In this document: positions 4,316-62,864 of the stretch, in pieces
How the letters are laid out: each line of letters opens with the position of its first letter
Position numbering within the stretch: the first letter of the stretch is position 1
Source of the DNA: a virus
Lineage: Duplodnaviria > Heunggongvirae > Uroviricota > Caudoviricetes
Virus record (IMG/VR): IMGVR_UViG_3300032323_004296
DNA: 64,000 nucleotides
Reading direction: 5' to 3' (one strand)
Notes under the pieces: generated by a model
What the model was told of the DNA's origin: nothing
Seen by the model: the letters and a program-made list of their open reading frames with translations, nothing else
Database searches by the model: none
Made by a program: the position numbers and the translations under genes

Positions 4316-5440
4316 ATGAAAAATACTATCTTAAATGAAGAGTTAGATAAAATGAAGTTTATGTTTGGGTATCAGAAAGGAAGAGTGATATCTGAACAAT
4401 CTAAATCACCTGAACAAGAAATCTATGATTTGTTATATAAAGGAACCCTAGGACCTGCTGGTGGAGTTATGGGTACAAGCATTGAGAAATTGAAACAGGG
4501 TTTTGGAAAATTCACTGGTCCGAAACAACTATTGGCGGTTGAAAAAATGATGAATGATAAACCGATGGGAACATATAGTAACTTGAGTGCTTTGTTGAGA
4601 GGAGAGTTAGAATTGGACAACTATAAAGATTTCTTAGAAATACAAAAAATGGTTGAACCTAAGGGAATTTATCTCAAATCAGGTCCAGTAGATAAAAGGT
4701 CGGGTCAATGGCCATATAATACTATTACTATTTCTGCACCAACTACTTCTACACCAGCGGAAAAACCGAGAACAACACCGTCAGGATATAACTTACCTCA
4801 ACAACCGAGAACAACACCTTCAGGATATAACTTACCCAAACAAACAAATAATACAAATCAACTTTCTCAAGACCCATTAACCCCTAGAGTTGACAACAAA
4901 CCTAAAGTAACTTTTAAACCAAATGACAACTTTCCAATAAAATTCATGGATAGTGGCGAAAAAGTAAAACAATTACAAACTGCTTTAGGTGTTGTTAATA
5001 AAGCGGGACAACCTAATATTACAGGTAAATTTTATACTTCTACTGAACAAAAATTAGTTAATAAGATGAAAGAATTAGGTTTGACGTATGATAGGAATAA
5101 AGGTGTTGATGAAGAAACATTTAACTTAGTATTGAGTGGACCTAAACCATCAAGACAAATAGAAAAACCAATCGAAATGGATAGAAAGGATGTAAATTTA
5201 AATGTACCGAAGAATAAAATAACAACAAAGGCACCAACAATTAAAACACCTCAAACTGACCTATCACTCGAACAACAATATCAGTTGGCAGATATTGAAT
5301 TCGAAAAGGCTAACGATGCTCTGAAAGCAGCACAAGAAACTGGAGATAGGGCTCAAATAGGTGCTGCGAGAGGAATTCAGCAAGCTGCGAGAATTAAAAG
5401 ACGAGAGTTGGAACGTCAGTTATACCCACCCCAACAGTAG
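4316..5440 (+). CDS. hypothetical protein with tandem 11-aa repeat PRTTPSGYNLP x2, Thr/Pro-rich linker
   Basis: 374-aa ORF followed by a strong terminator. The repeat is visible in both protein and DNA (4771-4840). Confidence 0.6.
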   Translation: MKNTILNEELDKMKFMFGYQKGRVISEQSKSPEQEIYDLLYKGTLGPAGGVMGTSIEKLKQGFGKFTGPKQLLAVEKMMNDKPMGTYSNLSALLRGELELDNYKDFLEIQKMVEPKGIYLKSGPVDKRSGQWPYNTITISAPTTSTPAEKPRTTPSGYNLPQQPRTTPSGYNLPKQTNNTNQLSQDPLTPRVDNKPKVTFKPNDNFPIKFMDSGEKVKQLQTALGVVNKAGQPNITGKFYTSTEQKLVNKMKELGLTYDRNKGVDEETFNLVLSGPKPSRQIEKPIEMDRKDVNLNVPKNKITTKAPTIKTPQTDLSLEQQYQLADIEFEKANDALKAAQETGDRAQIGAARGIQQAARIKRRELERQLYPPQQ

Positions 5441-7014: not shown

Positions 7015-7049
7015 TAAAGAGAGACTACGGTCTCTCTTTTTATTTTTTT
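7015..7049. terminator. bidirectional rho-independent terminator
   Basis: Hairpin AGAGAGACtacgGTCTCTCT followed by a T-run. It lies between the convergent genes 6695..6973(+) and 7040..7885(-). Confidence 0.65.
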
Positions 7050-7885
7050 ACATACTTGTGAGGTAATGTCGAGACTATTGGTGATGGAGAAATATTCCAA
7101 TTTATTTTTTCTTCATCGTTAATAGAACCTATGAAATAACAATAATCTTTTTCTTGAACAAATGATTTTGGTTCAAAGGTATCAAACCTTAACCCTAAAT
7201 GAAGTATATTCTCATTCGAAGATATTGAATCAGAAAAGCTCGAATTTTCTCCGATAGGTTTGAATAACTCAGCTCTATCGAATAGATATCGTAATATATT
7301 TTTATCGTAAATTATATAATCGTATAGGTTAAAATTCACTTGTTCAGATTCTAACATTCCTTGTCCACCACATTCGTTACAGGTTAAAACCTTGTCACCA
7401 CCACATTCAGGACAAGTTAACATTGAATCTCCATTACACACCTTACATCTAATTTGACCAGTCCCTCTGCAATTATCACAATCGGCATTTCCGTATTCAC
7501 CTGTCCCATAACATTTGTAACAAAATTGGCTACCCTCACCATCACAATCATCACATTTGACTACACCGAACATGTTACATTCCTTGCATCGGTTTTCACC
7601 TCCTTCACACTTTGGACAATCGATTTCTGCAAAATCATCTGATAAAAAATTGAAGATTGAAACTAACTTGATATTTGGTAAAATTTGTTCAGCCAAATCA
7701 AAACGTCCTGTTTGCTTGAGAGAAAAAATACCATAAACGATTTCAAACTTTTCAGCAGTAGAAAATCTCGAGAAATAGTTAGGTTGTGATTTGAGTTGTT
7801 TTTTCACTTCCATATAAATTCCATTGAGGGATTCAGGACATTCCTCTGATAGTGTTAAACAAATTTTCTTGATTGTATTTTTCAT
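7040..7885 (-). CDS. Cys-rich zinc-ribbon repeat protein (about 8 CxxCxGxG DnaJ-type repeats), paralog of 8561..9475
   Basis: Repeat run CPKCEGGE..CKECNMFG..CDDCDGEG..CYKCYGTG..CDNCRGTG..CKVCNGD..CPECGGD..CNECGGQG. The N-terminal domain is similar to that of 8561..9475. Confidence 0.7.
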   Translation of the reverse strand: MKNTIKKICLTLSEECPESLNGIYMEVKKQLKSQPNYFSRFSTAEKFEIVYGIFSLKQTGRFDLAEQILPNIKLVSIFNFLSDDFAEIDCPKCEGGENRCKECNMFGVVKCDDCDGEGSQFCYKCYGTGEYGNADCDNCRGTGQIRCKVCNGDSMLTCPECGGDKVLTCNECGGQGMLESEQVNFNLYDYIIYDKNILRYLFDRAELFKPIGENSSFSDSISSNENILHLGLRFDTFEPKSFVQEKDYCYFIGSINDEEKINWNISPSPIVSTLPHKYVKK

Positions 7886-8296: not shown

Positions 8297-8572
8297 ATGA
8301 GTTACGAAACTACTGGATTTACTTTTATAAGAACTCTGATTTCACCTGAAGAGTTTACAAAATATGTTGTTTTTGAGTGTGAGAACTTCGTTTATTCTGC
8401 TCGATGTTATCAAAATATCATACAATTTATTCAAGGTCAAAGACACACAGAACTTCTGACAAATGGACAAACTCCAACAGAAGAACAAAATATTCAACAT
8501 GATTTGAGAAGGGAACTTTACAATGGTGACCATCAACCTTTACAGGATTGGATTGATAATCTAAATCAATAA
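8297..8572 (+). CDS. hypothetical protein
   Basis: 91-aa ORF. Confidence 0.45.
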   Translation: MSYETTGFTFIRTLISPEEFTKYVVFECENFVYSARCYQNIIQFIQGQRHTELLTNGQTPTEEQNIQHDLRRELYNGDHQPLQDWIDNLNQ

Positions 8573-9475
8573 AGTATCTGGTTCGTCATTTGCACTAATT
8601 CCCTCTACTGCAACACCTTTTCTTTTGTAGAATAGTCTTGTTGAATTGAATGGGGAGATGTTGAAACAATATTTTTCATATTCTTTAACTGATGGGTCGA
8701 ATTGACCATATTCCCATCTACTGTTGATTAAGAGAACTGTTGGTCTTTCCTTGAACTCGAGGGTATGACCTAAAGGTGTGTTATTTTGCCAATCCCTGTA
8801 CAGACCATCTATAAGGTCATCGTCAAATATTAGATATTCATTTATCATATAATCGAAATCTAAAGTATCTATTTGGCCATCACTATCGCAGTAATCACAA
8901 TTTATTGAACCGTTACCATTACATTCATCACAACTTTCATACCCATCACCACCACAATTACCACAAGTCTTTCTACCACTGGCCCCACAACTATCACACT
9001 CAACTTCACCTTTTCCACTACAATTATCACATGTTTCCCCTTCAATATCACCCTCTCCATCGCATTCACTACATTCTGTTTTACCATCTCCATCGCACAT
9101 ATTACAATCTACTTCACCCTCGCCCTCACAACTGTCACAACTTATCTGTCCATTTCCATCACAATATTGACATGTCTCATTTCCATCACCATCACAATTA
9201 TCGCACTCTTCCTGATGCACGCTCACTTTATTATAATCAAAAAATTGTGCAAGCTGTAACTCAGGGATAATTTTTTCAGCAAAATCGAAACCATCAGTTT
9301 TTTTGAGAGAATAGATATAATATACCAATTTAATTGTATCATTAGCAGTAAAGGTTGGCACAAAATAATCAGGATTTTCTGACTGAAAAGTCAAAACTGA
9401 ACCGTAGATTTTTCTTAAATTATCACTGAATTCATCACTAATAATACTTGCAAGTTTCTTTAACCTATTACTCAT
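8561..9475 (-). CDS. Cys-rich zinc-ribbon repeat protein (about 13 CxxCxGxG repeats), paralog of 7040..7885
   Basis: Repeat run CDNCDGDG..CQYCDGNG..CDSCEGEG..CNMCDGDG..CSECDGEG..CDNCSGKG..CDSCGASG..CGNCGGDG..CDECNGNG..CDYCDSDG. Shares an N-terminal domain with 7040..7885. The antisense His-rich ORF 8905..9270 is a codon-complement artefact. Confidence 0.7.
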   Translation of the reverse strand: MSNRLKKLASIISDEFSDNLRKIYGSVLTFQSENPDYFVPTFTANDTIKLVYYIYSLKKTDGFDFAEKIIPELQLAQFFDYNKVSVHQEECDNCDGDGNETCQYCDGNGQISCDSCEGEGEVDCNMCDGDGKTECSECDGEGDIEGETCDNCSGKGEVECDSCGASGRKTCGNCGGDGYESCDECNGNGSINCDYCDSDGQIDTLDFDYMINEYLIFDDDLIDGLYRDWQNNTPLGHTLEFKERPTVLLINSRWEYGQFDPSVKEYEKYCFNISPFNSTRLFYKRKGVAVEGISANDEPDTLLI

Positions 9476-16578: not shown

Positions 16579-16770
16579 ATGAAGGAAGAAAATAAAAATA
16601 GAGTATCAGGGATATTTGTACCTTTGAATGTTGGAGACATAATTTATACTGGAAAATTTAAAAACAAAAAAACGACAGTAAAAACTATCGGAGTCGATGA
16701 ACATGGGATGCCAACTATCAACGGTAAACGTGCGTGTACATTTAGGTTGGTTCCTAAAGAAAAAAGTTAG
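16579..16770 (+). CDS. hypothetical protein
   Basis: 63-aa ORF. Confidence 0.35.
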   Translation: MKEENKNRVSGIFVPLNVGDIIYTGKFKNKKTTVKTIGVDEHGMPTINGKRACTFRLVPKEKS

Positions 16771-17036
16771 ATTTTATTTATCAGATTGGCTAAGTTATGA
16801 CATTTATCTGAAACTTTATTGGCTTCGTGGTCAAATAATAAAATCTTTACAGAATTGTATTTTACTAACATATCAGGATGATGATTTTCTTTTTCTGCAA
16901 TCGAACCAACTTTATTAACAAATTTTAGAACGTCTTTGTAAGTCTCGAAATTAAATGTTTTTTCCAATTGTCCGTTATTAATTTTCCACCCTTTAACTAA
17001 TCTTTTTTCCTGTTCCTCTGTTATAATGTAATACAT
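16767..17036 (-). CDS. phhB: pterin-4-alpha-carbinolamine dehydratase (PCD/DCoH)
   Basis: Motif KENHHPD plus the W...LEKTF..F....FVNKV pattern and a length of 89 aa are characteristic of PCD. Confidence 0.8.
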   Translation of the reverse strand: MYYIITEEQEKRLVKGWKINNGQLEKTFNFETYKDVLKFVNKVGSIAEKENHHPDMLVKYNSVKILLFDHEANKVSDKCHNLANLINKI

Positions 17037-18937: not shown

Positions 18938-19276
18938 ATGAGAATTATCATCACTGAAGGTCAATCTGATTCATTGATTTATAATATTTTGGCAGATACC
19001 TTTACAGGTTACGAATTGAAGTTCGAAGGTGATGGTAGAAATATCTACGTAGACGGTCAAGTGATGATGACAATTTATCCTAACAGAGTCGTAATCGACA
19101 AAAGTATTATCGACCATATCACAAACACATTTTTCTTTGATGACATCAGAGACTTGAAAAAAATAATCAGAGAATGGGTTGTAGAAAACTTTGGAGTTAA
19201 AAGGGCAAGTCAAACGTTTTTTGGTGTTCAATTCAAAGACCTTTCGGGAAATTCAACTCAAAGATTGGAGAAATAG
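18938..19276 (+). CDS. hypothetical protein (leader MRIIITEGQSDSLIYNIL, family B-like)
   Basis: N-terminus resembles the B leader, including an ITE tripeptide. Confidence 0.45.
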   Translation: MRIIITEGQSDSLIYNILADTFTGYELKFEGDGRNIYVDGQVMMTIYPNRVVIDKSIIDHITNTFFFDDIRDLKKIIREWVVENFGVKRASQTFFGVQFKDLSGNSTQRLEK

Positions 19277-19280
19277 GAAA

Positions 19281-19667
19281 TTAATAAATTGAACGATTAC
19301 CAGGTTCACGAGTAATACCTACTTCATCTATTTCAACATTCAAGTTTTCACTAACCCAATCTGCAATAATATCAATTATTTTACTTTCTCTTACATTAAG
19401 ACTTATTCTTAGGTTGTCGACCAAATTGGAGTCAATGTAAAGACTACCCATACCATTATGTGGATTTCCATCGTCGTCTTCACCAGGGCCGTACCAAAAA
19501 TAACTCATTGGATGTTCTCCATCGTCAGTGTAGATTTCAACTCTCCATACACTACCATCTTCAACATGAGGGTTTTTGTAATTCCTAAAATCTTCTTTTG
19601 AGAAAATTTCCGTAAGGTATCTGTAAACCAAGGAATGAAATTGAGATGGACTTATAATATATCGCAT
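19281..19667 (-). CDS. leader family B protein (MRYIISPSQFHSLVYRYL)
   Basis: N-terminal motif shared with the MKYIITEEQY family. Confidence 0.5.
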   Translation of the reverse strand: MRYIISPSQFHSLVYRYLTEIFSKEDFRNYKNPHVEDGSVWRVEIYTDDGEHPMSYFWYGPGEDDDGNPHNGMGSLYIDSNLVDNLRISLNVRESKIIDIIADWVSENLNVEIDEVGITREPGNRSIY

Positions 19668-19718
19668 TTAGGTTTGTTTAGTAATAAATACAAAGATATT
19701 TATCTTTATAGATACAAT

Positions 19719-20195
19719 ATGAACTTACAAGAAAACATACATAGGATTAGAGAGATGATGGGTATAAGTGAGTCAACCATCCCAAACTCAATTAAAAGGA
19801 GAGCTAATGAGCTGACATTGAAAGAATACATAACCAAAGGAGAATTACAATATCCAACTCTATGTGATGATTTTGAGGATGAATATGAATATGCTGATGC
19901 AGTAATTGATTATGGTCTTGACGAATTTTTATATGAAGTGAACGATGACATCTTCGATGAAGATTATTACAGTGATGTTATGGATTATTTAAGAAACACG
20001 TGCAGAGATTTGTTTGGCCAGTATTTGATTGATATATACAAAACAACTTGTTCTGAATATATGTCAGATTCAGATATGAAAGAAGAACAGAACGAATCAG
20101 AAATTACTGAGAGATGTTGGAAAGGATATACTCAGAAAGGAATGAAAACAATGTTCGGTAAAAGATACCCAAATTGTGTTAAAAAGAAAAAGTAA
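19719..20195 (+). CDS. leader family C protein (MNLQENIHRIREMMGI); body paralogous to 37856..38197
   Basis: Start set at the internal ATG at 19719, which is preceded by TATCTTTATA. Its body ...IPNSIKRRANELTLKEYI...YADAVIDYGLDEF...MDYLRNTCRDLFGQ aligns with 37856..38197. Confidence 0.6.
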   Translation: MNLQENIHRIREMMGISESTIPNSIKRRANELTLKEYITKGELQYPTLCDDFEDEYEYADAVIDYGLDEFLYEVNDDIFDEDYYSDVMDYLRNTCRDLFGQYLIDIYKTTCSEYMSDSDMKEEQNESEITERCWKGYTQKGMKTMFGKRYPNCVKKKK

Positions 20196-20196
20196 T

Positions 20197-21159
20197 ATGA
20201 ACTTACAAGAGAACATACAAAGGATAAAAGAGATGATGGGTATAATTTCTGAAACCACAAAAATGGTTAACAAGATTGAATGGGTCAAACCTGAGTTCCA
20301 AACGGAAGAAAACGAATTTATGAATCATTTTCTTAATTGGTTACAAGACGACGTTCTTCAAGTAAACTTTGAGCATTTTTCAAATAAACAATTAGACAAA
20401 CTTATTGATGATATTCACAGCGCTTATGAAAGGGCTGACGTAAAATCATTAACTGATGAAGAATGGTCAAAGATGGAAAATACAGATAGTTGGACAATAG
20501 AAACATATAAAGATTTGTTCGATATTATACATGGGCAATGGGGTAGGAGTGAGGAAAGGATAATTAAACATTCAATAGAGCCGCTCAAAAATGGTGGAAT
20601 AGTTGAAACACCTATAGTTGCATACGCAGACAACCATCCACCCTATTTAGTTGCGGGAAACACAAGATTGTCCGTTTGTAAACTTTTAGGTATAACTCCA
20701 AAAGTTACCAAAGTTAAAATCAAAATTAATATCAAGGAAGAAAAAAAATCAGGAGAGGAGTGGGTCAAGTGTGTTAATTGCAAAAAGAAGTTTACACAAA
20801 CAATTCATAAAGGAAAAAAGTCTTTACCAATCTGTCCTCATTGTGGTACAAACAATGATTTAGTTAAAGAATCGGTAATTCCTGTTTATCTTAAAAGAAG
20901 ATTGTTCGAGATGTTACCAAATTTCATAAGAAATACCTATGAATGGTTGGCACCATGGTCATTTAATAGTTATGACGAATACATGGAAAGAATTATTTTC
21001 AATGTTGTAAGAGAAATTTCTCTTTCTGCTGGAGAGGAAAACTATGAAGAAATAATGAAAATGAGGGAGAAACTTGCTCCATATATAACCAAATACATCG
21101 AAGATAATTTCTCAGAGGAAATAGAAGAATATTACAACGACAACTCGACACCTGGATAA
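20197..21159 (+). CDS. leader family C protein with ParB/Srx-like motif and C-terminal zinc ribbon
   Basis: Leader MNLQENIQRIKEMMGI. HPPYLVAGNTRLSVCKLLGI resembles the ParB N-terminal / sulfiredoxin fold. Zinc ribbon CVNCKKKF...CPHCG. Confidence 0.55.
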   Translation: MNLQENIQRIKEMMGIISETTKMVNKIEWVKPEFQTEENEFMNHFLNWLQDDVLQVNFEHFSNKQLDKLIDDIHSAYERADVKSLTDEEWSKMENTDSWTIETYKDLFDIIHGQWGRSEERIIKHSIEPLKNGGIVETPIVAYADNHPPYLVAGNTRLSVCKLLGITPKVTKVKIKINIKEEKKSGEEWVKCVNCKKKFTQTIHKGKKSLPICPHCGTNNDLVKESVIPVYLKRRLFEMLPNFIRNTYEWLAPWSFNSYDEYMERIIFNVVREISLSAGEENYEEIMKMREKLAPYITKYIEDNFSEEIEEYYNDNSTPG

Positions 21160-21908
21160 TTTGATTCGAACATCGGAAATACTGCATCCTCAGGTGAAAC
21201 TTCCACAAGTCCAATACCTAAGTAATTAGCGTCCATTCCTTCATATTGGTCAATAAATTCATAGGTCTTCTTGTGATTTTTTTTGACTTCATTCCAAATC
21301 AATCTAGTACTTTCTGAGTTCCTATTACTTATATCGTGAAAGATAATGTATTTCGCACCCAAAATAAGTGCTGTGACATAATCATGTTTGACACAAGGAT
21401 AAGTATGACATCCGTCTATGAATACTAAATCAATTTTCTTTGTTGTAATTCCTAAAGGCATCTGGTCCACCCCTGTGAGGGTATCGAAGAAGGTAGAACT
21501 GTGTGATGGAGTTTGGTGATAATAAAATCTATCCCTCACAAACTCGTGTTGATATGTATGTAATATTTCGGAGGGAGGAATAATATCCACACAATGAGAC
21601 TCCACGTAGTTATTATATCTTTTAAGTAATTCGTTTATCAAAACAAATGTACCACCATACCTTACACCAATTTCTAAGTATGAATTAATTTTCTTCCCTT
21701 TCAAATGACAAAGTAATTTACTAAGTTGGTTTGGGTATTGCCAAAACTTTATTCCCCATCCCATATATTTCGAGAACATAGGGGGTATTTCACTAATGTA
21801 TTCATTGTTCATTCCAAAGGTCGGAAGTATATTTTCAATTTCTTTTTGTGATGCGTTAACAAAATCAAAGTTAACTATTTCGGTTAATGATTGTCTAATT
21901 GTCTTCAT
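21132..21908 (-). CDS. class I SAM-dependent O-methyltransferase (TylF/MycF-like, Methyltransf_24)
   Basis: SYLEIGVRYGGTFVL (SAM motif I) and IDLVFIDGCHTY...IIFHDI, typical of macrocin/sugar O-methyltransferases. Confidence 0.7.
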   Translation of the reverse strand: MKTIRQSLTEIVNFDFVNASQKEIENILPTFGMNNEYISEIPPMFSKYMGWGIKFWQYPNQLSKLLCHLKGKKINSYLEIGVRYGGTFVLINELLKRYNNYVESHCVDIIPPSEILHTYQHEFVRDRFYYHQTPSHSSTFFDTLTGVDQMPLGITTKKIDLVFIDGCHTYPCVKHDYVTALILGAKYIIFHDISNRNSESTRLIWNEVKKNHKKTYEFIDQYEGMDANYLGIGLVEVSPEDAVFPMFESNYPGVELSL

Positions 21909-24230: not shown

Positions 24231-24608
24231 CTATAGGTCATCTTCATCATCTTCAAACTCATAATCTTCATCATCTTCGGACTCATCATCCTCATCTTCC
24301 AAATCATGTGGAAACATAGAAATTATGTAATCACCATAATTCTCCTCGATGAATTCCTTCAATTCTTCTTCGTCCAATCCCTCTTGTCCACCTGTCTCCA
24401 TAAAAAGCCTATCTACCACGATATTAATGACAATGTTCAAGAATTCAATTATGTTTGTGAATTCACCACCTCCATCTTTATGTATTTCCGAAATTTCGTC
24501 TTGGATGATTTTCTCGATTGAATTAATTCTTCTTCTAAGAAATGGAGAACTTAAGTCTAACTCTTCTTTAATTAAATTATATTGTCGTTCAGTTACAATG
24601 TATTTCAT
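24231..24608 (-). CDS. leader family B protein with poly-acidic C-terminal tail
   Basis: N-terminus MKYIVTERQYNLIKEEL. The C-terminal 30 aa are almost all D/E with aromatic residues (DLEDEDDESEDDEDYEFEDDEDDL). Confidence 0.55.
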   Translation of the reverse strand: MKYIVTERQYNLIKEELDLSSPFLRRRINSIEKIIQDEISEIHKDGGGEFTNIIEFLNIVINIVVDRLFMETGGQEGLDEEELKEFIEENYGDYIISMFPHDLEDEDDESEDDEDYEFEDDEDDL

Positions 24609-24641: not shown

Positions 24642-25091
24642 ATGATGAATTTACAGGAAAATATACAAAGAATTAAGGGTATGATGGGAATTACAGAAGA
24701 GTCATACGTTAATACCGAGGATGGAACATATGTCACCACCGAAGATGGGGTTCGAGAATTAGAATATATTTTGAATAAAAGAATGCCGAAGATATTCCCA
24801 TGGTGGAAAAAAATTGATTTAGAATACATAGGTCATCATGTTCGATATCCTAATATGAGACTTAAAGGAACGTTGTTTGTAGATAGAGATTGGGCAATCA
24901 ATAGGTTTGAATCACATAATACTTATAGTAAATTTGACGATGATAAAAATCTTTATTTAGGACATTTTTTGGTAACAGATGAGGTAAATGAGATTGAGGA
25001 ATATGTCAAAGAAAATTACTCAATCATTGCTGGGAAAAACCCTATGAGTGTTAAAATGTTCAGGAAAGATATCAAAGTTGTTGCGGTATAA
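24642..25091 (+). CDS. leader family C protein (MMNLQENIQRIKGMMGI)
   Basis: N-terminal motif. Confidence 0.55.
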   Translation: MMNLQENIQRIKGMMGITEESYVNTEDGTYVTTEDGVRELEYILNKRMPKIFPWWKKIDLEYIGHHVRYPNMRLKGTLFVDRDWAINRFESHNTYSKFDDDKNLYLGHFLVTDEVNEIEEYVKENYSIIAGKNPMSVKMFRKDIKVVAV

Positions 25092-26696: not shown

Positions 26697-26996
26697 TTAT
26701 TTAGTTTCAGTACTATGAAACTCCACATCATCGAATCGCTGATAGTGCTCAGGTCCGAGTGCATTAAAACAAGTCTCAGTTAATTCAGCCACTTCTTTAA
26801 AATCTTCCGTAATAGTAATATCTCCATCTTCGTCAGGGGTAACATAATAAATGACTATAAATTTTTCAACACCAATCTTTTTTAACCTTCCCATGACGGG
26901 TCTAAAAGTATCTGCCTTTATTTCGAAATCCTGTATAAAAGGGTACTTACCAATTATCAATTTCCTTATCAACTTATCTAACAAAACTTTCATCAT
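26697..26996 (-). CDS. hypothetical protein, tandem paralog 1
   Basis: MMKVLLDKLIRKLIIGKYPFIQDFEIK...ELTETCFNALGPEHYQR is about 65% identical to 27019..27354. Confidence 0.55.
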   Translation of the reverse strand: MMKVLLDKLIRKLIIGKYPFIQDFEIKADTFRPVMGRLKKIGVEKFIVIYYVTPDEDGDITITEDFKEVAELTETCFNALGPEHYQRFDDVEFHSTETK

Positions 26997-27018: not shown

Positions 27019-27354
27019 TTAATCCTCATAACCATAAAACTCAACATCTTTAACTCGCTGATAATCCGCAGGTCCTAACGCATTAAAACAAGTCTCAGTC
27101 AATTCTGTTATCTCTTTAAACTCATCATCATAAGGGTACTCTCCATTTTCATCAGGGGTTACATTATAAATAATGGTATATCTCTCAACATCAATCTTTC
27201 TAAACTTTCCTATTTTGGGTTTAAAAGTGTCTAATTTTATTTCAAAATCCTTAATGAAAGGATACTCACTAATTATTAATTTTCTTATCAAACTATCTAA
27301 CAAAACTTTCATCATACTAATAAGTATTTTAGTTGTCAAGTAATTCTTGACCAC
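27019..27354 (-). CDS. hypothetical protein, tandem paralog 2
   Basis: MMKVLLDSLIRKLIISEYPFIKDFEIK...ELTETCFNALGPADYQR. A flanking 18-bp repeat CTTACTCTATAATCGTAT is found 3' of each copy. Confidence 0.55.
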   Translation of the reverse strand: MVKNYLTTKILISMMKVLLDSLIRKLIISEYPFIKDFEIKLDTFKPKIGKFRKIDVERYTIIYNVTPDENGEYPYDDEFKEITELTETCFNALGPADYQRVKDVEFYGYED

Positions 27355-30541: not shown

Positions 30542-30814
30542 ATGGATTATATAGTTAAAGAATCACAACTAACAAATTTTTTGAAGAGGAGGTTTTCTAT
30601 GGAAGACCTTGAACAAATTGTAAATGATGTTAAGGGGAGTATTGAGCAAGGGGAGAATTGGGATACCTCACTATATGATGGAATTAGACAATTAATCAAA
30701 AGTAAAAAATTTAAAGACATTGATGAGTTTGGAAATGATGAGTCATATTGGAATTCATATCTGAAATATGAAAAGGAGTTGTTGGCTTATGTTGTTTCCA
30801 AATTGAATTTATAA
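30542..30814 (+). CDS. hypothetical protein (leader MDYIVKESQLTNFLKRR, family B-like)
   Basis: N-terminus resembles the B family. Confidence 0.45.
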   Translation: MDYIVKESQLTNFLKRRFSMEDLEQIVNDVKGSIEQGENWDTSLYDGIRQLIKSKKFKDIDEFGNDESYWNSYLKYEKELLAYVVSKLNL

Positions 30815-30874: not shown

Positions 30875-31276
30875 ATGAAAAAGGTTGTAAGATTAACTGA
30901 GTCTGATTTGTCAAAGTTGGTTAAAAGGGTTTTAATTGAACAGGAGAAACAATCATCATTTATGGATAAGTTATCTTCAATAAATTTTGATTTACCAAAT
31001 GCGAAACAGGTTCTCAAGAAAATGGTATTATTTCCTATTGAAATGGTATTGGGAAATCTTCCTCCTGTAATGATGGGGAAGGTTGCATATTTTCTTTTCA
31101 AGAATAAGGATAGTGTTCCTGAGATTTCTGCATGTATTCAACAAACAAGGTTTAGATTTCCAAAATCTTGTGATGGGTCATCAAACTTTCAAAGTGGTCC
31201 ATGTATTAGTTCGTTAAAACAAAATTCATCTCAACTTGGGGATTTATATTCTTGTATAAAGGGAAAGATGAAATAA
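30875..31276 (+). CDS. leader family A protein (MKKVVRLTESDLSKLVKRVLIEQ)
   Basis: Conserved leader with a Cys-containing body. Confidence 0.6.
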   Translation: MKKVVRLTESDLSKLVKRVLIEQEKQSSFMDKLSSINFDLPNAKQVLKKMVLFPIEMVLGNLPPVMMGKVAYFLFKNKDSVPEISACIQQTRFRFPKSCDGSSNFQSGPCISSLKQNSSQLGDLYSCIKGKMK

Positions 31277-31334: not shown

Positions 31335-31682
31335 ATGAAAAAGACTATAAGATTAACTGAATCTGAATTGATTAAATTGGTTAAGAGAGTTGTTAGTGAA
31401 CAATTTAATGATAGATTTGTGGACTATGATTCAACGGATATGGAAAATGATTCAGATAATTGGAAAGATATTGGTGATAAGATGGATATGAGAAATAATG
31501 AAATCACAAAAAATCAACTTAAGGATATTATCATGAATTTTTCTCGAATAGATTGTAGTAATGTTAATGCCTTTGATGGTGAGAACTTGACTAGTGAAAT
31601 TCCTGAACGTGATATAATTTATTGTCAGTACTACAAAGGGAAATCTCGAGCTGATTTAATGAGAAAATATAAGTCTTTATAA
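31335..31682 (+). CDS. leader family A protein (MKKTIRLTESELIKLVKRVVSEQ)
   Basis: Conserved leader. Confidence 0.6.
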   Translation: MKKTIRLTESELIKLVKRVVSEQFNDRFVDYDSTDMENDSDNWKDIGDKMDMRNNEITKNQLKDIIMNFSRIDCSNVNAFDGENLTSEIPERDIIYCQYYKGKSRADLMRKYKSL

Positions 31683-32538: not shown

Positions 32539-33132
32539 ATGAAACATTTATTGAATGATTTAACGGAGCAAGAAAAGAATTCTATCCGTGAACAACATAC
32601 AGAGAAAATTAGAATTGATACATCAAAGTTTTCCAAATTGGTTAATACAAAGTCGGGTGATGCAAAACCATTTATTAATGAACAATCCGATGTCTGGTCG
32701 AAATATCCATGTGTCAAAAAAATGAAAGATGGTCTTAGTCCTAATGGTCAGAAATTTAAAACTGATGGGAAGATGCAATATTATTCTAATGGTAGAGCTA
32801 TGGACCCTGTGACAAAGAAAAAGTATAATTATGAATGTGGTGATGGAGATGAAATTCTTACAACAATACAAGAACAATCTGAAGGTCAGAGTCATCAATC
32901 ATCTAATTTTTCTTCAGGTCAAGTTGTTAAAGCAAAAAGGGATAAGGATGGTCAGGTTTATACAATTCAGATTGTTAAATCTGAACCGAAGTTTATTTTG
33001 GGGACAATTACGGGACCAGGTACATATCAGGGTCAGTCATTGAAAAATGGCACACAGGTTGAATTATATTCTTATTCTCCTGGTAAATTATCCGGCAATA
33101 TGGATTTGGGCAATTTTACAGTTGTAAAATAA
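32539..33132 (+). CDS. hypothetical protein
   Basis: 197-aa ORF followed by a terminator at 33155-33181. Confidence 0.55.
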   Translation: MKHLLNDLTEQEKNSIREQHTEKIRIDTSKFSKLVNTKSGDAKPFINEQSDVWSKYPCVKKMKDGLSPNGQKFKTDGKMQYYSNGRAMDPVTKKKYNYECGDGDEILTTIQEQSEGQSHQSSNFSSGQVVKAKRDKDGQVYTIQIVKSEPKFILGTITGPGTYQGQSLKNGTQVELYSYSPGKLSGNMDLGNFTVVK

Positions 33133-33204: not shown

Positions 33205-33510
33205 ATGAAATATATCATAACGGAAGAACAATATAAAAGAATTGCATACTCTCCTAGTAGGTTATGGATATTGAGGAGATATGATTTGGTTAAAAAATCA
33301 TTTATGGAAACGTTGAAGAATGTTAACCCTTGTACGACAAACTCTTTTGAACAATACGAAAACGAATTTTATCTTACTTTAATGGATGACCTCCATGAGT
33401 TATATTATTTGGTTGATGGTTTTGACTATTTAGGTGTTTTTGAAGAATTGAAGGACCTATTTTATGTTGACCTCACCGAAGAATATTTTGAACGCAAAAG
33501 GGCTTGTTAA
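33205..33510 (+). CDS. leader family B protein (MKYIITEEQYKRI)
   Basis: Start moved to the internal ATG. Confidence 0.55.
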   Translation: MKYIITEEQYKRIAYSPSRLWILRRYDLVKKSFMETLKNVNPCTTNSFEQYENEFYLTLMDDLHELYYLVDGFDYLGVFEELKDLFYVDLTEEYFERKRAC

Positions 33511-33671: not shown

Positions 33672-34172
33672 ATGAAAAAGATAGTTAGACTTACAGAATC
33701 GGAGTTGGTTCGTTTGGTTAATAAAGTTCTTGAAGAACAAAAAGTAACAACAAAGGGTATTTCTTTAACTCCTGATAAGTCAAAAGATAATAAAGGAAAA
33801 TGTAAACCACCATCCTCCCCAGAGGAATTTGAAGACGCAGTTCTTGATAGAGTTGAAACTTGGGATGAGATACACAACGTAATTTATAGTATTAACCCAA
33901 CTCCACTGATTTTATCCAAACTAAAAGGAACAAGATATGGAGGTTTCTCATATGATAAGGCAAGTAATACTATATCATTATATAAATTCACAGGGTATTG
34001 GAGGATGTTTTTTACAGGTGAAAGCTTAGGTGATTTTCTTGTGAAGATAAAGATGCCTATCAATTTATTACCAAAATTACCTAGAGAATACTTTGATGAG
34101 TCAATGTCAATGGTACCCACTTTTGAGATAGAAAGTGGAAAGATAAAATTATTTATGACTGGACTTTGTTAA
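33672..34172 (+). CDS. leader family A protein (MKKIVRLTESELVRLVNKVLEEQ)
   Basis: Leader is nearly identical at DNA level to the copy at 34872. Confidence 0.6.
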   Translation: MKKIVRLTESELVRLVNKVLEEQKVTTKGISLTPDKSKDNKGKCKPPSSPEEFEDAVLDRVETWDEIHNVIYSINPTPLILSKLKGTRYGGFSYDKASNTISLYKFTGYWRMFFTGESLGDFLVKIKMPINLLPKLPREYFDESMSMVPTFEIESGKIKLFMTGLC

Positions 34173-34249: not shown

Positions 34250-34789
34250 ATGAAATATCTCATTACAGAAAGACAATATGGTGTATTAATGGAACAACAA
34301 GTTAGAATTCCTATGCCGCTTCAGAATCCGGTTTTCGACAAGGTTATCAAATTAAATAAAAAGGTTTTTGGATTACCTGTTAATCCACAAATTACTCCTG
34401 AATATACAAAAAAAATGAATGATTTATTGAACAAAAAAAATGTTGATACATCACAGAGAACTTTGTTGGGAGCTTTGGTAAACTTCATACCCATATATGA
34501 AACATATTTGGACCTGGAGACACTTATAGATGGAATCACAACGTTAGATAGAGCAAAAATGAATGGTGGATTTATTGCTTTGATTTATCCTTCGTTTTCC
34601 TATAAAGCAATGACAAATTTGTATTCTTGGTTTGTAGAAAAAACGTCGGGTAAGGAACAAGCTGATTATCAGGATAATGCCAGAATTGATTTAGTAAATA
34701 TGACTCAAGTAGATAGAGAAAAATTATTTAAGAAATATGGGTATGGTGGTTATGAAAAGTGGATTAAAGCTGGAAAACCAAAACTGTAA
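34250..34789 (+). CDS. leader family B protein (MKYLITERQYGVLMEQQ)
   Basis: Leader motif. Confidence 0.55.
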   Translation: MKYLITERQYGVLMEQQVRIPMPLQNPVFDKVIKLNKKVFGLPVNPQITPEYTKKMNDLLNKKNVDTSQRTLLGALVNFIPIYETYLDLETLIDGITTLDRAKMNGGFIALIYPSFSYKAMTNLYSWFVEKTSGKEQADYQDNARIDLVNMTQVDREKLFKKYGYGGYEKWIKAGKPKL

Positions 34790-34871: not shown

Positions 34872-35375
34872 ATGAAAAAGATAGTTAGATTATCAGAATC
34901 AGATTTGGTTCGTTTGGTAAATAAAGTTATTAAAGAACAATCTGTATCTCCGATTCCTTCAAAAGGCGCTCAACCAAAATCACCAAATATAGGTACTAAC
35001 ACAAAACAAAACCCGTCACAAATGAGAGGTTCAGTACCGGCACAATCAAGAGCGACGGCTGTGAAGGGTACACCAGCAAAACCTGGTATGTTACCTAATG
35101 TAGATATCTTGAACAGGGACTACAAAGGGAAAAGTTTCAATTGGAATGGTAAGTCTGTACAAATAGATGGTTTTGTTTTGGCAAAAAATCCTCAGACTGG
35201 TGCAATGGAACCTAATTTTCCTGTAGATATGCAAACCTATGTTAATGGAAATGGAATGGATTGGTCATTTGACTGTAAATCTAAAGGTTTTTCAAAGGTG
35301 GGAAACATGCCAAATACGAAATTAACAGGAACAAGAATCGAAACTCAGATTTATCAAAACTATTGTAGAAGATAA
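34872..35375 (+). CDS. leader family A protein (MKKIVRLSESDLVRLVNKVIKEQ)
   Basis: Start moved to the internal ATG. Confidence 0.6.
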   Translation: MKKIVRLSESDLVRLVNKVIKEQSVSPIPSKGAQPKSPNIGTNTKQNPSQMRGSVPAQSRATAVKGTPAKPGMLPNVDILNRDYKGKSFNWNGKSVQIDGFVLAKNPQTGAMEPNFPVDMQTYVNGNGMDWSFDCKSKGFSKVGNMPNTKLTGTRIETQIYQNYCRR

Positions 35376-35997: not shown

Positions 35998-36570
35998 GTG
36001 AAATATATTATAACAGAAGAACAATATAGTATTTTAAAAGAACAAAATCTTATCAACCGTTATTTGGATAGTAGAGGGGGGATAATTAGGATGTCGAAAT
36101 TAATTGCCGACCAATACTTCAAGTTGATTCATTTTGTTGATGTAACGAAACCCCAAATAGAAGAAATGGGTGAAAAAATATATCCCGCAAATGAAATGGT
36201 ATCCAAAAACCCAAAGTTGAAAGGTACACCTGAATATAGAGAATTAAAAGATAAAGAGGACGCCTATGACCACCAGCTCGCGAGTGCGATTGCATCTTCA
36301 ATCTTCGGACCAGAATTTTCAGAACTATTGGGAAAGGCGAATGAAATAAAAGGTGGGCTTAGAATGTTCTTAAAAGGGTCTCCATCAAAAGGGATTGATA
36401 AATTTGAACAATTTACATCAGGTTGGGAAGAAGACAATGCAAACAATCAAATTGGTATTGAGTTGGGGAAGAAGTATCCGAACAAAAATATACAGTTTTT
36501 TTCAGATTTGGTTGTGAAAAATATAGAAAACAAAAATTACTACGATTCTACGGGAAAAAAGAAAAAGTAA
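35998..36570 (+). CDS. leader family B protein (MKYIITEEQYSILKEQNL)
   Basis: Leader motif. Confidence 0.55.
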   Translation: MKYIITEEQYSILKEQNLINRYLDSRGGIIRMSKLIADQYFKLIHFVDVTKPQIEEMGEKIYPANEMVSKNPKLKGTPEYRELKDKEDAYDHQLASAIASSIFGPEFSELLGKANEIKGGLRMFLKGSPSKGIDKFEQFTSGWEEDNANNQIGIELGKKYPNKNIQFFSDLVVKNIENKNYYDSTGKKKK

Positions 36571-37466: not shown

Positions 37467-37841
37467 ATGAAATACATTATATCTGAAGAACAATACCAAA
37501 AGGTGATTTGGCAAGACCAATCTTCCGACACGTCTATCGAAGAAATTCGTGGAATGAAGGAATATATCGAAAGTTTTTTACCAAAAATTTTGAAATATTT
37601 TAAGTCTAAGTATAAGAACGATTTGGTTAAAATTGACGTAGAAACAAAAAATGTACTTTTTGGTTATGAAGATTTTGTCATGGAAATACCATTAATCACC
37701 TTTTATTTTTCCGAGTCCGTAATAAACAGGACTGAAGAAATCTTCAATGATTTAAAAAATATTTTTGATATAAACATGAAAAGTTATGGTGTCCCTTTGA
37801 GTATTAGGATATACGAACAAACATGGAAACGTGTTTATTGA
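37467..37841 (+). CDS. leader family B protein (MKYIISEEQYQKVIWQ)
   Basis: Start moved to the internal ATG. Confidence 0.55.
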   Translation: MKYIISEEQYQKVIWQDQSSDTSIEEIRGMKEYIESFLPKILKYFKSKYKNDLVKIDVETKNVLFGYEDFVMEIPLITFYFSESVINRTEEIFNDLKNIFDINMKSYGVPLSIRIYEQTWKRVY

Positions 37842-37855
37842 TAAAATCAAACACC

Positions 37856-38197
37856 ATGAAATACATTATTTCCGAATCTCAGTACAAAACATTGTTGGAA
37901 CAAAATGTTCCGAATTCAATCAAAAGAAGAGCCAATAAAAAAACATTGGATAAGTATATCTCGTTATCGAAAAGAAATAACCCACCTTATTGTCAGGAAC
38001 ACGAAGATGGGTACGATTATGCTGATGAAGTGATATACTATGCCATTGATTATTTTTTTACTGAAGTTGGTCCTCAAGTAGAATATATAGATGATTATAC
38101 TGATATTATGAATTATCTTAGAAACATGTGTAGAGAATTGTTTGGTGAATCTTTGGTCTATCATTATGAAAATAATTGTATTCCTGATGAAAGTTAA
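37856..38197 (+). CDS. leader family B protein (MKYIISESQYKTLLEQNV); body paralogous to 19719..20195
   Basis: Body VPNSIKRRANKKTLDKYI...YADEVIYYAIDYF...MNYLRNMCRELFGE aligns with the family-C-led 19719..20195. Confidence 0.6.
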   Translation: MKYIISESQYKTLLEQNVPNSIKRRANKKTLDKYISLSKRNNPPYCQEHEDGYDYADEVIYYAIDYFFTEVGPQVEYIDDYTDIMNYLRNMCRELFGESLVYHYENNCIPDES

Positions 38198-38866: not shown

Positions 38867-39394
38867 ATGAGACGTAAAATTATTTTTATTGATATTGATG
38901 GACCATTAGCTTGGGGAACTTGGGGTGATGGGAGAATCGACATAGATTTAGGTAATAAATCTTTTAAGATTCCTTATCCATGGGTTAAAGAGGATTGTGA
39001 TGCACTCAAAACCATTCTAAACAAAACTAACGCAATGATGGTTTTGAGTTCAGATTGGAGAGGTCATTTTAGTATCAATCAAATGAGAGCAATTTTCGAA
39101 CACTACGGTATACATGGTCATAATTTGATAGACATTACAACTCATCAATCTCTTTGGAATAAGATGAGCAGACCTTCGATTGATTGGGAAAGAGCAACAC
39201 AGATTGTGAAGTGGGTGAGAGATAACAAAATTTCTAATTGGGTTGCAATTGACGACTTGAATTTGAAAGGACAATTCAAGTGGATGAAACCCCGTGTTCC
39301 AATGTGGAGACATGTCCAAGTGGATGGAGATTTTGGTCAGGGGGGTAGGCTTAGGGATAAAATTGATGAGTGTATTACCAAATTGAATAAGTAA
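38867..39394 (+). CDS. putative HAD-superfamily hydrolase
   Basis: Motif I FIDIDGPL (DxDG), motif II VLSSD, motif IV WVAIDDL. Confidence 0.5.
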   Translation: MRRKIIFIDIDGPLAWGTWGDGRIDIDLGNKSFKIPYPWVKEDCDALKTILNKTNAMMVLSSDWRGHFSINQMRAIFEHYGIHGHNLIDITTHQSLWNKMSRPSIDWERATQIVKWVRDNKISNWVAIDDLNLKGQFKWMKPRVPMWRHVQVDGDFGQGGRLRDKIDECITKLNK

Positions 39395-44788: not shown

Positions 44789-45286
44789 ATGGAAAGAAGA
44801 TTTATTTTAACAGAAGAAGAAAAGAAAAATATTAGAAAACAATATTTTTTCGAACAATCTACAGAAAAAACTGAAAAAAGGTTTTGTCACAAGGGTAATA
44901 CTAAGTCTTTAGAAGACATCATGGGTCCTGAAGATGCTGAAGATTATATTGAAGGTGTCAGATTGAGAAATTCAGGTGTTCGTGGATTGACAGATACTCT
45001 CGAATTACTCAAAACAATTCATCTACATCCGAATATTTCGGATGGTGGAATGGATTTAGCTAACAAACTTGTCAGCAATCTTCAAACTTACAAACCTTAC
45101 AACTATTTTGACGAAACTAAGAAAGAATGTAATAGAGCAATGGATAAAATTATTGAACTCTATAAAGAAAACGAACACGGTGAAGAATTAGTTAAAGATA
45201 TTGAAAAAGTATATCAAATAAAAGATGTTTCAGACAGAGCTAAAGAATATATCAAACACGGACTAGCTATCATAAAGGGTGAATAA
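44789..45286 (+). CDS. hypothetical protein
   Basis: 165 aa. Terminator follows at 45278-45310. Confidence 0.5.
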   Translation: MERRFILTEEEKKNIRKQYFFEQSTEKTEKRFCHKGNTKSLEDIMGPEDAEDYIEGVRLRNSGVRGLTDTLELLKTIHLHPNISDGGMDLANKLVSNLQTYKPYNYFDETKKECNRAMDKIIELYKENEHGEELVKDIEKVYQIKDVSDRAKEYIKHGLAIIKGE

Positions 45287-46283: not shown

Positions 46284-47402
46284 ATGAGAAGGATTATAAG
46301 ATTAAATGAAAATGATTTAGAATCAATTATACAAAAAGTTATTTTAGAGCAAGGAAGTATGTTTGGAACTGCGGGGACAAACCTACCTGGATATAGAAGA
46401 GACGACCCAAGAAACACTCAACCAAAAGTTGTTACTCCAAGGGTTGAGGATATTAATCCTAAGAAATTGAAAATGGGTGATGGAGGTAGAAAAAATCCAA
46501 AACAAGAAGAGGATGTAAAAATTTTACAAAGAAAATTAATGAAGTTAGGTCATCTTGTAATTAAAGAACCTACAGGATATTTTGGTTCATTAACTCAAAA
46601 GGCTTTGGACAATTATTACAATTCAGGAAAAACAAGTGGAACTGAAAAAAAGAAAACAACAACCACAACTACGACTAAACCAACAGAAAATGTTAAATAT
46701 TCAAAACAAGTTCAGGACCAATTGAATTATATGAAAAATTCAGGAATATTGAAAAATGAAAAATTTACAATACTTGATGACAAAAATTCAATAGTTTATG
46801 CTTTCTTACCTGAATACAAATTCTACAAATTATATTATGTTATCACAGGGAAAAACAGAGGGGATGCTCTCAAAACTAAAAGTATGACAGATTGGATTTG
46901 GGAAAATTGGCGTCAAGTTGGTTCATATATTTGGAAACAAGTAAAAGGTGTTGGAAAATGGAGTGACATCACCAGTTTACCTGATAGAGTTGCTGATTAC
47001 ATTGATGGTTGTTATTTTAATTCTGGTGATTGGGTAATTAAAAACACACCCTCAGGAGTATTTAAAAGAGCGGGTACTATTTCAAACTATATGAATGATT
47101 TATTATTAACTACGTTTATAAGTGAAGATTATGGGGATAGGTTTATATCTTGGGACACTTGTGAAGGAAAAACCATACCTTTCGGATTTCACGGAACAGG
47201 AAGTGCAGATAGATTGGAGGTTCTAAACAATGCCAATCCTGAGAAAGTTTCTTGCCAAAGGCGTAAAATGTCTTTCGGATGTATAAATTTCAACCAAAAG
47301 GATGTTAATAATATCAATAACTTTATCAGTGCAGGTCAATTGACTATTTGGTTACCTGATAAAACTAATGATATTGTAGAAATTCCACAAAACTGTTTGT
47401 AA
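46284..47402 (+). CDS. leader family A + peptidoglycan-binding domain + L,D-transpeptidase (YkuD)-like catalytic domain
   Basis: Leader MRRIIRLNENDLESIIQKVILEQ. The PG_binding_1-like segment is DVKILQRKLMKLGHLVIKEPTGYFGSLTQKAL. The YkuD signature HGTGS...SFGCINF has the His and Ser-x-Gly-Cys spacing of L,D-transpeptidase. Confidence 0.65.
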   Translation: MRRIIRLNENDLESIIQKVILEQGSMFGTAGTNLPGYRRDDPRNTQPKVVTPRVEDINPKKLKMGDGGRKNPKQEEDVKILQRKLMKLGHLVIKEPTGYFGSLTQKALDNYYNSGKTSGTEKKKTTTTTTTKPTENVKYSKQVQDQLNYMKNSGILKNEKFTILDDKNSIVYAFLPEYKFYKLYYVITGKNRGDALKTKSMTDWIWENWRQVGSYIWKQVKGVGKWSDITSLPDRVADYIDGCYFNSGDWVIKNTPSGVFKRAGTISNYMNDLLLTTFISEDYGDRFISWDTCEGKTIPFGFHGTGSADRLEVLNNANPEKVSCQRRKMSFGCINFNQKDVNNINNFISAGQLTIWLPDKTNDIVEIPQNCL

Positions 47403-48346: not shown

Positions 48347-48679
48347 ATGTATTATGATTTGACAATAAATATTGATATATTTATTTATATGTTATTAACA
48401 GAACAAGAAAAAGAAGAAATAAAGAAAAAATACGAGGACAACATATCAAAAGAGGTCTTGGCTCATTTGAAAAGATATTATCCTATTTATGAATTCAATA
48501 TGAAATTTATGGATTCTCCTGTCAAACAGATTTTAGTGGATGATAAACTATATATGCTTTCTCAAAATAAAAAGTATCTAGTTAATAAGATATCTTCCAT
48601 TATAGAAGAAACATTTACGTCAGTAGAAAAACCCTTTCTCAGAAGAACTGTAAAATTTTATTTAGATATGTTGAAATAA
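48347..48679 (+). CDS. hypothetical protein
   Basis: 110 aa. Confidence 0.45.
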   Translation: MYYDLTINIDIFIYMLLTEQEKEEIKKKYEDNISKEVLAHLKRYYPIYEFNMKFMDSPVKQILVDDKLYMLSQNKKYLVNKISSIIEETFTSVEKPFLRRTVKFYLDMLK

Positions 48680-62234: not shown

Positions 62235-62864
62235 TCATTTCTTGAACCTTTTTAAAATTTTACTTATAACATCAATTAGGATTTGACCTGCAACAAGAAC
62301 AACTCCTGAAGTTAGTAATCTTTCAACAATAATTTTGGAGGCATTAGCGATACTTGTTGCTCCATGAGCGACTAGTTGTAAGTCGTTGATAATTGGTATT
62401 AGAAATGAATAATGAATCATTTCAACAGTTGTGCCCAACGTAAGATTCAAACTTTCCATAAAACTAACAAACGAATCTTTGAGTTGTTTACTCTTCAATA
62501 ACATTTCTTCAAAAAAACTAACTAACCCTTCTTTTTCAATTTGTTCGTAAAGTTTTTTTGTTTCTTTTTTATTTTGATAAAAATAAGTACAGGCAATACC
62601 CAATGTGATTAGGATTATTGAATCTTCAGAAAATTCTAAATAATTGTCTCGGATATATTTGTCTAAAGGGCCAACAAAACCACCAATAACAGGACCCCAA
62701 GTAACCAAAAATTTGAAGTTGAGACCAAATATCCTTTTAGCTTTATTAATTAAGTTTACAGTAAATGAATTCAGTTGTTTCATGTTACGGGTAAACTTTT
62801 CAGTGTTCTCTGACTCTACTAAAAAATTGAGTTGCGATTCATTAATAAGAAAATCCATACACAT
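62235..62864 (-). CDS. membrane protein
   Basis: 209 aa with several hydrophobic helices. Confidence 0.5.
   Translation of the reverse strand: MCMDFLINESQLNFLVESENTEKFTRNMKQLNSFTVNLINKAKRIFGLNFKFLVTWGPVIGGFVGPLDKYIRDNYLEFSEDSIILITLGIACTYFYQNKKETKKLYEQIEKEGLVSFFEEMLLKSKQLKDSFVSFMESLNLTLGTTVEMIHYSFLIPIINDLQLVAHGATSIANASKIIVERLLTSGVVLVAGQILIDVISKILKRFKK

Follow-up and report, generated by a model that had tools for sequence, protein, structure and literature searches.

The two genes and their common body

The window, by which we mean the whole stretch of 64,000 nucleotides analysed here, contains on its plus strand two genes, 19719-20195 (+) and 37856-38197 (+), whose products share a body and differ in their N-termini. 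The first gene opens with an ATG at 19719 and closes with a stop codon at 20193-20195, giving a product of 158 aa, and the second runs from an ATG at 37856 to a stop codon at 38195-38197, giving a product of 113 aa. We set the start of the former at 19719 and not at 19635, because the longer frame overlaps the divergent gene 19281-19667 and because the homologues begin with MNLQENI. BLASTP aligned residues 18-111 of the 19719 product with residues 15-108 of the 37856 product without gaps (45/94 identities, 48%, E 5e-29), so that the claim of an earlier note on this DNA that the two bodies align stands, and the spurious low-complexity matching against which it had warned is ruled out. The N-termini, MNLQENIHRIREMMGISE in the 19719 product and MKYIISESQYKTLLE in the 37856 product, are unalignable. 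An alignment of the two genes at the nucleotide level, which the same note had proposed, is likewise uninformative for the 5' ends that encode the leaders, and shows about 75% identity only from the codons of I/V-P-N-S-I-K-R-R onward, at 19779 and 37907 respectively. As the protein similarity begins directly after the leaders, both junctions do fall at the leader/body boundary.

The 19719 protein can be divided into a leader, M1-E18 (19719..19772, +), ending in the triplet I-S-E; an acidic helical body, S19-C111 (19773..20051, +), which is paralogous to 37901-38194; an acidic low-confidence linker of residues 112-131 (20052..20111, +; pLDDT 48-67) that ends in a conserved I-T-E; and a basic C-terminal tail, RCWKGYTQKGMKTMFGKRYPNCVKKKK, which together with the stop codon occupies 20112..20195 (+) and is predicted by AF2 to form a beta hairpin. 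In the 37856 protein a leader, M1-E15 (37856..37900, +), ending in the triplet L-L-E, is followed by the body, Q16-S113, which with the stop codon spans 37901..38197 (+) and lacks a tail, as judged from BLASTP, the DNA alignment, AF2 and the HMM. AF2 gives both proteins one and the same body of four helices, modelled with confidence, and ahead of it an N-terminal helix of lower confidence. The leader helix of the 19719 protein covers residues 3-13 (pLDDT 54-69) and is joined to the body by a linker with values below 50, and downstream of the body the floppy acidic linker leads into the hairpin; the leader of the 37856 protein is modelled at pLDDT 70-77, under the value of its body. The 19719 body is strongly acidic (pI 4.05, charge -15.5), with basic charge confined to the tail (+9.7). 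An HMM of the body recovers the window pair with E-values of 3e-48 (19719) and 5e-37 (37856). Three other segments with a common 'RRR' start, in 24231-24608, 33205-33510 and the C-terminus of 20197-21159, were considered as further paralogues of the body and rejected, being undetected by this HMM.

A basic C-terminal tail module

The tail of the 19719 protein, CWKGYTQKGMKTMFGKRYPNCVKKKK, is a third module that the earlier note had overlooked, and the 37856 protein is without it. Its consensus, CWxGYxxKGMKTMFGKRYPNCVKK, describes a basic, mobile mini-module with two cysteines, found in 284 phage records, nearly all of them T4-like cyanomyoviruses, with up to 84% identity to the tail of the distant phage represented by the window. 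The tail alone, and neither the leaders nor the body, is matched by PHROGs, all of them of unknown function. Among homologues of the 19719 protein it is preceded by a conserved [IL]TE, and the linker/tail context E[IL]TE[RK]CW is kept. In cyanophage S-SCSM1 the tail lies inside the CDS SSCSM1_29 (locus L283), annotated as 'virion protein', and the virion proteins of this phage were identified by mass spectrometry (PMC9602691). The S-SCSM1 protein is a mosaic of several small basic Cys modules resembling the tail, and modules of this kind are also seen in window 57336-57962 and in L116 18953-19648. In T4, Alt is processed at its C-terminus as well as at its N-terminus (PMC9026906).

Leader families in the window

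A census of the window by regular-expression search and, separately, blind clustering of N-terminal 14-mers both yielded three leader families, with 5 genes for leader A, about 11 for leader B and 3 for leader C. These make up about 19 of the roughly 96 ORFs (some 20%) in the 64 kb. The blind clustering recovers the families, and the earlier assignment of the pair to different ones, 19719 to C and 37856 to B, is borne out. Besides gene 19719, leader C (MNLQENIQRIKEMMGI) begins a gene with a zinc-ribbon segment (20197..21159, +) and the gene 24645..25091 (+). Leader B, with the pattern MKYIITE-Q-Y, is found on a pterin-4a-carbinolamine dehydratase (16767..17036, -; Pfam PF01329, E 5e-21), on 18938..19276 (+), on the divergent neighbour of gene 19719 (19281..19667, -), on 24231..24608 (-), 33205..33510 (+) and 34250..34789 (+), on a gene with a GTG start (35998..36570, +) and on the gene directly upstream of gene 37856 (37467..37841, +); B-like versions open 30542..30814 (+; MDYIVKESQ) and 62235..62858 (-; MDFLINESQ). 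Leader A (MKKIVRLTESDLVRLVNKVLEEQ) is carried by 30875..31276 (+; here in the form MKKVVRLTESDLSKLVKRVLIEQ), 31335..31682 (+), 33672..34172 (+), 34872..35375 (+) and 46284..47402 (+). The last has a peptidoglycan-binding domain (Pfam PG_binding_1, E 8e-06); an L,D-transpeptidase domain considered for the same protein gained no support from Pfam.

Several further N-termini deserve mention. Possible extra leader families occur at window positions 4316-5440, 32539-33132, 44789-45286 and 48347-48679; one of the candidates is E-like (MKNTILNEELDKMKFMFGY) and another is an 'LTEQEKxxI(R/K)xQ(Y/H)' type present on three genes. The tandem paralogues 26697-26996 and 27019-27354 (-) have a common N-terminus, MKVLLD-LIRKLII, and similar bodies, and look like a local duplication and not a leader family. 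In locus L116 the ORF 20546-21289 (-), directly upstream of a normal leader-A gene, has a leader-A-like sequence, NYIKLKESDLNRLVKKIISEQ, in mid-ORF (at about residue 117 of 247 aa), which may reflect a gene fusion or a missed start codon.

Genomic context and the phage clade

The window is an accessory region of 32% GC with three tRNAs, an endolysin-like GH19 protein and glycosyltransferases, and a Pfam survey of 75 of its proteins revealed accessory functions only and no head genes in the 64 kb. On a related contig the sequence past the 3' end of the window contains thymidylate synthase, a 435-aa ORF, 2OG-oxygenase-like genes and phosphoesterases, again with no head genes. Head genes are encountered in other related contigs, which range from about 100 kb to 326 kb. 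In locus L067 the large terminase and the portal adjoin leader genes, and this portal matches 2589 T4-type phages, the best matches being Microcystis phage Mel-JY01, Flavobacterium phage immuto and Rhodothermus phage RM378. The 97.7-kb contig from which L075 and L116 derive encodes A and B leader genes together with a terminase, a portal, a Peptidase_S77 protein of the gp21 family (L116 13320-14039), an acidic protein resembling a scaffold (L116 14350-15882) and a capsid protein of the Gp23 family. Seven proteins are common to the window and this contig, with 44-81% identity, and the tie of the window to the S77 protease runs only through such related contigs. A 321-kb contig combines a capsid protein 71% identical to the gp23-like protein of L116 with a homologue of the 19719 protein that has leader, body and tail. 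Judged from the genes of these relatives, the clade is one of T4-like myoviruses. Leader genes are rare near the head gene cluster, with 4 within 10 kb over about 850 kb covered.

Some neighbouring genes are unusual in their own right. A 666-aa ClpA/B-like ATPase (PHROG 4871, E 6e-239; e.g. L067 5965-7965, -) is encoded in L056, L067, L077 and L081, and in several contigs of the clade its gene lies a few kb from those for the terminase, the portal and the leader proteins. The window genes 7040-7885 and 8561-9475 (-) are two paralogues with long runs of CxxC/DnaJ-like cysteine-rich repeats, and many related contigs encode homologues that are 25-39% identical. At the edge of the window, the thymidylate synthase (63508-63987, -) reaches 432 aa in a related contig (L163 10615-11913), an exceptional length that suggests an insertion in mid-protein. 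The gene 55786-56901 (-) encodes a membrane-anchored double PAS-domain protein, and Pfam also reported a cREC_REC receiver-like domain and an HAD_SAK_2 domain in the window, which we tentatively place on 51875-52252 (-) and 38867-39394 (+); all three are unusual accessory functions in a phage.

A TATTTAT motif at 19697..19703 (+), read from the sequence, precedes gene 19719 as a candidate promoter or initiation element. In the 50 nt ahead of the start codon it is present for 57% of leader genes and, among the remaining ORFs, for 32% of those with 200 aa or more, compared with 2% of random 50-mers; it is mostly spaced 10-14 nt, or less often 20-24 nt, from the start codon. The motif is probably a promoter or initiation element specific to the clade, and since it lies so near the ATG the transcripts may be nearly leaderless. 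It is present also before head genes, namely those for the portal, the protease and the scaffold in L116. A sigma-70 promoter scan showed no enrichment over shuffles, and the T4 late promoter (TATAAATA) was found upstream of 6% of leader genes versus 4% of others, which is not a meaningful enrichment.

Exchange of leaders among homologues

The 19719 protein had 2527 matches in a database search, and we examined 122 sequences, comprising 120 from the database and the two window proteins. The body was present in 110 of the 122. It is combined with leader B in 46 homologues without the tail and 4 with it, with leader C in 25 with the tail and 6 without it, with leader D (MRQLIKKILKEE) in 7 with the tail and 2 without it, and with leader E (MSLLNEEITKIQLMMGLIE) in 2 that have the tail, the remaining body-containing sequences being truncated gene calls. 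Leaders C, D and E form a continuum, as is seen from hybrids like MSLRETIKRILKEE. Bodies under different leaders reach identities of 76-83%. The 19719 body itself is 76% identical to a B-led body of another genome as against 48% to its paralogue in the window; hence the window pair reflects an old split and not a recent recombination. On a neighbour-joining tree of 92 bodies, Fitch parsimony required about 4-5 leader changes, compared with 35.6 for shuffled labels, and 8 gains or losses of the tail.

The further cases that the earlier note had hoped to see in related phages are thus found among the homologues of this body, and they extend to other cargo. We surveyed 79 related IMG/VR loci, which yielded 332 leader-bearing ORFs (248 unique) in 143 body clusters; the loci were recruited through the 19719 protein, so the leader counts are biased. 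Among the 32 cargo clusters with more than one member, 28 keep a single leader family and 4 mix families. The pterin-4a dehydratase has leader B in window 16767-17036 versus leader C and the tail in locus L014, the cargo of window gene 30542 has a B-like leader versus leader C and the tail on its L014 homologue, and a family of PG-binding-like cargo mixes B and C leaders. The few changes on the body tree and the single leader family of 28 of the 32 clusters indicate that leader exchange is real but infrequent. The earlier note's view of the leaders as exchangeable modules accordingly stands insofar as B, C, D and E leaders occur on the same body and other cargo families are mixed, and has to be modified in that swaps are rare and its own example is no recent recombinant. 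These comparisons support the leaders being portable modules of a system that extends across the clade. The two genes are best explained as ancient paralogues that encode a small helical domain of acidic character in an aquatic T4-like myovirus of an uncultured clade, each assembled from independent modules, namely a leader of 11-23 residues, a body and, in the 19719 protein only, a basic C-terminal hairpin.

Distribution and novelty of the leaders

The leaders are 11-23 aa long, and their cores lie at the start codon in 209 of 215 occurrences. In the clade they are attached to about 140 unrelated cargo families (the 143 body clusters of the 79 related loci). About ten of the 143 cargo representatives have Pfam domains, among them Pterin_4a, NUDIX, P-loop kinases, ART-PolyVal, GIY-YIG, HD and PG_binding_1, and some of these (the pterin-4a dehydratase, NUDIX and P-loop kinase proteins) look metabolic. 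The 248 unique leader-bearing proteins have a median pI of 5.4. Neither the leaders nor the body is covered by any Pfam, PHROG or NCBIfam model. In 50,697 records of cultured phages, tblastn found no match for leaders A and C, and megablast of a 20-kb part of the window against this collection was likewise negative. N-terminal families of this kind are also missing from the first 50 kb of a cultured relative, Flavobacterium phage immuto. A search of the accessible literature for the tail string CWKGY and for one string each of leaders A (in two spellings), B and C found none of them.

A conserved triplet and the possible role of the leaders

A triplet of the form [LI]xE is near-invariant in every leader family. 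With the triplet wild-carded in the search patterns, it is present in 55/55 occurrences of A, 87/97 of B, 43/44 of C and 19/19 of D (204/215 overall), against a background in which 31% of non-leader ORFs have an [LI]xE within their first 12 residues, and over residues 1-30 it is 4-7 times as dense as over residues 31-60. Homologues of the 19719/37856 body show an [LI]xE-S junction with both B and C leaders, and in the window the junctions read ISE18|S (19719) and LLE15|Q (37856). In leaders B and C the invariant triplet lies within the peptide (at residue 7 and residue 5, respectively) and not at its end, and cutting once at that site would leave the greater part of the leader in place. The capsid protein of the clade has a 59-residue N-terminal segment ending in LINE|ASST, an end that aligns with the propeptide boundary of T4 gp23.

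In T4 the internal proteins and Alt have N-terminal propeptides of 7-19 residues that bind the scaffolding core and are removed after Glu by gp21; processing of the IPIII targeting sequence, MKTYQEFIAE, depends on I8 and E10, and among T-even phages the cargo behind the targeting sequence varies widely (PMC9026906, PMC3012670, PMC8442874, PMC5694885). By analogy, the leaders could well be T4-style capsid-targeting propeptides that load cargo into the capsid, a proposal that we rank first among the explanations and to which we give even odds. Capsid targeting with proteolytic removal is favoured by the [LI]xE triplets and junctions, by the end of the capsid propeptide and by the occurrence of the tail in an annotated virion protein. 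That the leaders are targeting peptides of some sort, as the earlier note supposed, is plausible given the T4-type head protease of the clade, the [LI]xE at the junctions and the strict N-terminal position. Under the capsid proposal the amphipathic leader would dock the cargo onto the scaffolding core of the prohead, a gp21-type prohead protease would cut at [LI]-x-E (I-S-E18|S and L-L-E15|Q in the window pair), and the mature cargo would remain in the head and then pass into the host along with the DNA. In the course of evolution, the flexible junctions would now and then have recombined, giving cargo genes another leader, or adding or removing the tail. Speaking against this proposal are the many tagged genes (about 19 in the 64 kb, versus the handful of T4), the metabolic-looking cargos, the acidity of the 19719/37856 cargo, the lack of head genes in the window, whose tie to an S77 protease runs through related contigs, the internal position of the invariant triplet in B and C, the frequency of [LI]xE in other N-termini, the scarcity of leader genes near the head gene cluster and the dissimilarity of the leaders to the T4 targeting sequence.

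The same strict N-terminal position, amphipathic helices and conservation at the protein level would suit any system of peptide recognition, and the leaders might instead be docking tags, cleaved or not, for some other phage partner such as a Clp-type unfoldase, a chaperonin, a membrane surface or a multiprotein hub. A 666-aa ATPase of the ATP-dependent protease type is indeed encoded beside leader genes in L056, L067 and L077, and a good number of the cargos are small enzymes for which a role within the cell is easier to understand. Such tags are the main alternative, to which we attach a rather low probability, and would leave unexplained why [LI]xE is kept across unrelated leader families, why the junction [LI]xE-S is found in both the B and the C versions of the body, and why the tail lies within a protein annotated as a virion protein. 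The peptidoglycan-binding domain behind a leader A and the resemblance to PG-binding proteins of a cargo family with mixed B and C leaders could point to a non-classical signal for export or injection, for instance to the periplasm or the cell wall. This is unlikely because the leaders are hydrophilic amphipathic helices, acidic to neutral with a net charge of about -1, in which a search for Sec, Tat and lipoprotein features found neither a hydrophobic core nor a twin-arginine motif; moreover, the genuine exported proteins of the window use ordinary signal or lipoprotein peptides (e.g. 40143 and 40932), and most cargos have no envelope-related domain.

It could also be argued that what is shared is not the peptide at all and that the 5' ends are DNA or RNA elements, either an expression cassette or a homology handle that mobilises cassettes, with a functionless translation. 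T4-type phages reportedly shuffle genes through repeated regulatory cassettes, the PeSL elements ascribed to Arbiol et al. in 2010, and TATTTAT is more frequent before leader genes (57%) than before others (32%), though this latter share also means that the motif is not specific to them. The codons speak otherwise: conserved residues, such as Leu7, Thr8, Ser10 and Arg14 of leader A, are written with up to four synonymous codons, and the codon identity of leaders within one genome (0.57-0.69) is barely above that between genomes (0.56-0.61). Hence selection acts on the peptide and not on the DNA, and a DNA or RNA cassette, which we regard as highly improbable, is largely excluded. Still closer to nil is the chance that the body similarity is spurious or that the leaders belong to one ancestral domain, with no modular exchange, a reading refuted by the gapless BLASTP alignment and the HMM matches, by the identical predicted helix topology of both bodies and by the presence of the same leaders on the unrelated domains Pterin_4a, NUDIX, GIY-YIG, HD and PG_binding_1.

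Returning to capsid targeting, the sequences also admit a more elaborate scheme, which we offer tentatively and think rather less probable than not: the clade, an abundant one, may use a combinatorial addressing code, in which at least three unrelated leader superfamilies and the basic C-terminal hairpin load dozens of small proteins, encoded by about a fifth of the genes of the accessory region, into the virion. In such a code different leaders might specify different sites, stoichiometries or orders of release.

Comparison with known systems

The closest known analogue of the leaders is the T4 capsid targeting sequence (CTS) of IPI, IPII, IPIII and Alt. Both are short N-terminal peptides (10-19 aa in T4, 11-23 in the leaders) on otherwise unrelated proteins, and both have [LI]-x-E at or near the peptide end, a likeness which for the leaders is one of sequence and in which the invariant triplet of B and C is internal. 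The T4-type portal, gp21-family protease and gp23-family capsid protein have their counterparts on contigs related to the window. As in T4, the genes for the cargo are found away from the head gene cluster and differ from one related phage to the next (PMC9026906, PMC3012670). The differences are considerable: beyond M-K and a downstream I-x-E in leader B, the leaders bear no similarity to MKTYQEFIAE; a single genome contains at least three leader superfamilies that are unrelated, whereas T4 has one; dozens of genes are tagged, compared with four or five in T4; the 19719/37856 cargo is acidic (body pI 4.05), unlike the basic internal proteins of T4; and an additional C-terminal module, the basic tail, is present.

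The giant phages phiKZ, 201phi2-1 and SPN3US have many head-internal proteins processed after Glu by a gp21-related protease, and resemble the present clade in having paralogous cargos with conserved N-termini (e.g. SPN3US gp53/gp54) and several cleavage motifs per propeptide (PMC5694885). Some of the related contigs, at up to 326 kb, are likewise of jumbo size. However, the propeptides of these giant phages are mostly longer than 100 residues with the motif A/S/G-x-E, in contrast to the short leaders in discrete families, and beyond the head core the phages themselves do not resemble T4. Polymorphic and polyvalent proteins such as the MuF-type toxins likewise join one constant address label to payloads that can be interchanged; the polyvalent proteins delivered by phages, reportedly described by Iyer et al. 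in 2017, are said to join a conserved trafficking part to variable effectors. One leader-bearing representative matched the ART-PolyVal domain. Polyvalent proteins differ in having large folded N-terminal domains or being long multidomain proteins, whereas the leaders have about 15 residues, and no MuF or other trafficking domain was detected here. The cargo-loading peptides of encapsulins, too, are short terminal peptides that send diverse cargo into an HK97-fold shell, but they are usually C-terminal and uncleaved and bind the shell protein, not a scaffold, and no encapsulin is present here.

Implications

Even if the target should not be the capsid, a strictly N-terminal peptide code conserved at the protein level on about 140 cargo families constitutes a recognisable sorting system for which Pfam, PHROG and NCBIfam have no model. 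If capsid targeting is true, sequence alone would flag which proteins of uncultured phages travel with the DNA into the host, and would bring into view a great many unexplored candidates for early effectors, for example anti-defence proteins, DNA mimics, ADP-ribosyltransferases and nucleases. The principle of T4 targeting would, moreover, have branched into several leader classes in parallel, and foreign proteins could be packaged into phage heads by means of new short tags. Should the addressing code also prove true, this would be by far the largest arsenal of phage-delivered effectors described, and a natural toolkit of orthogonal capsid-loading tags.
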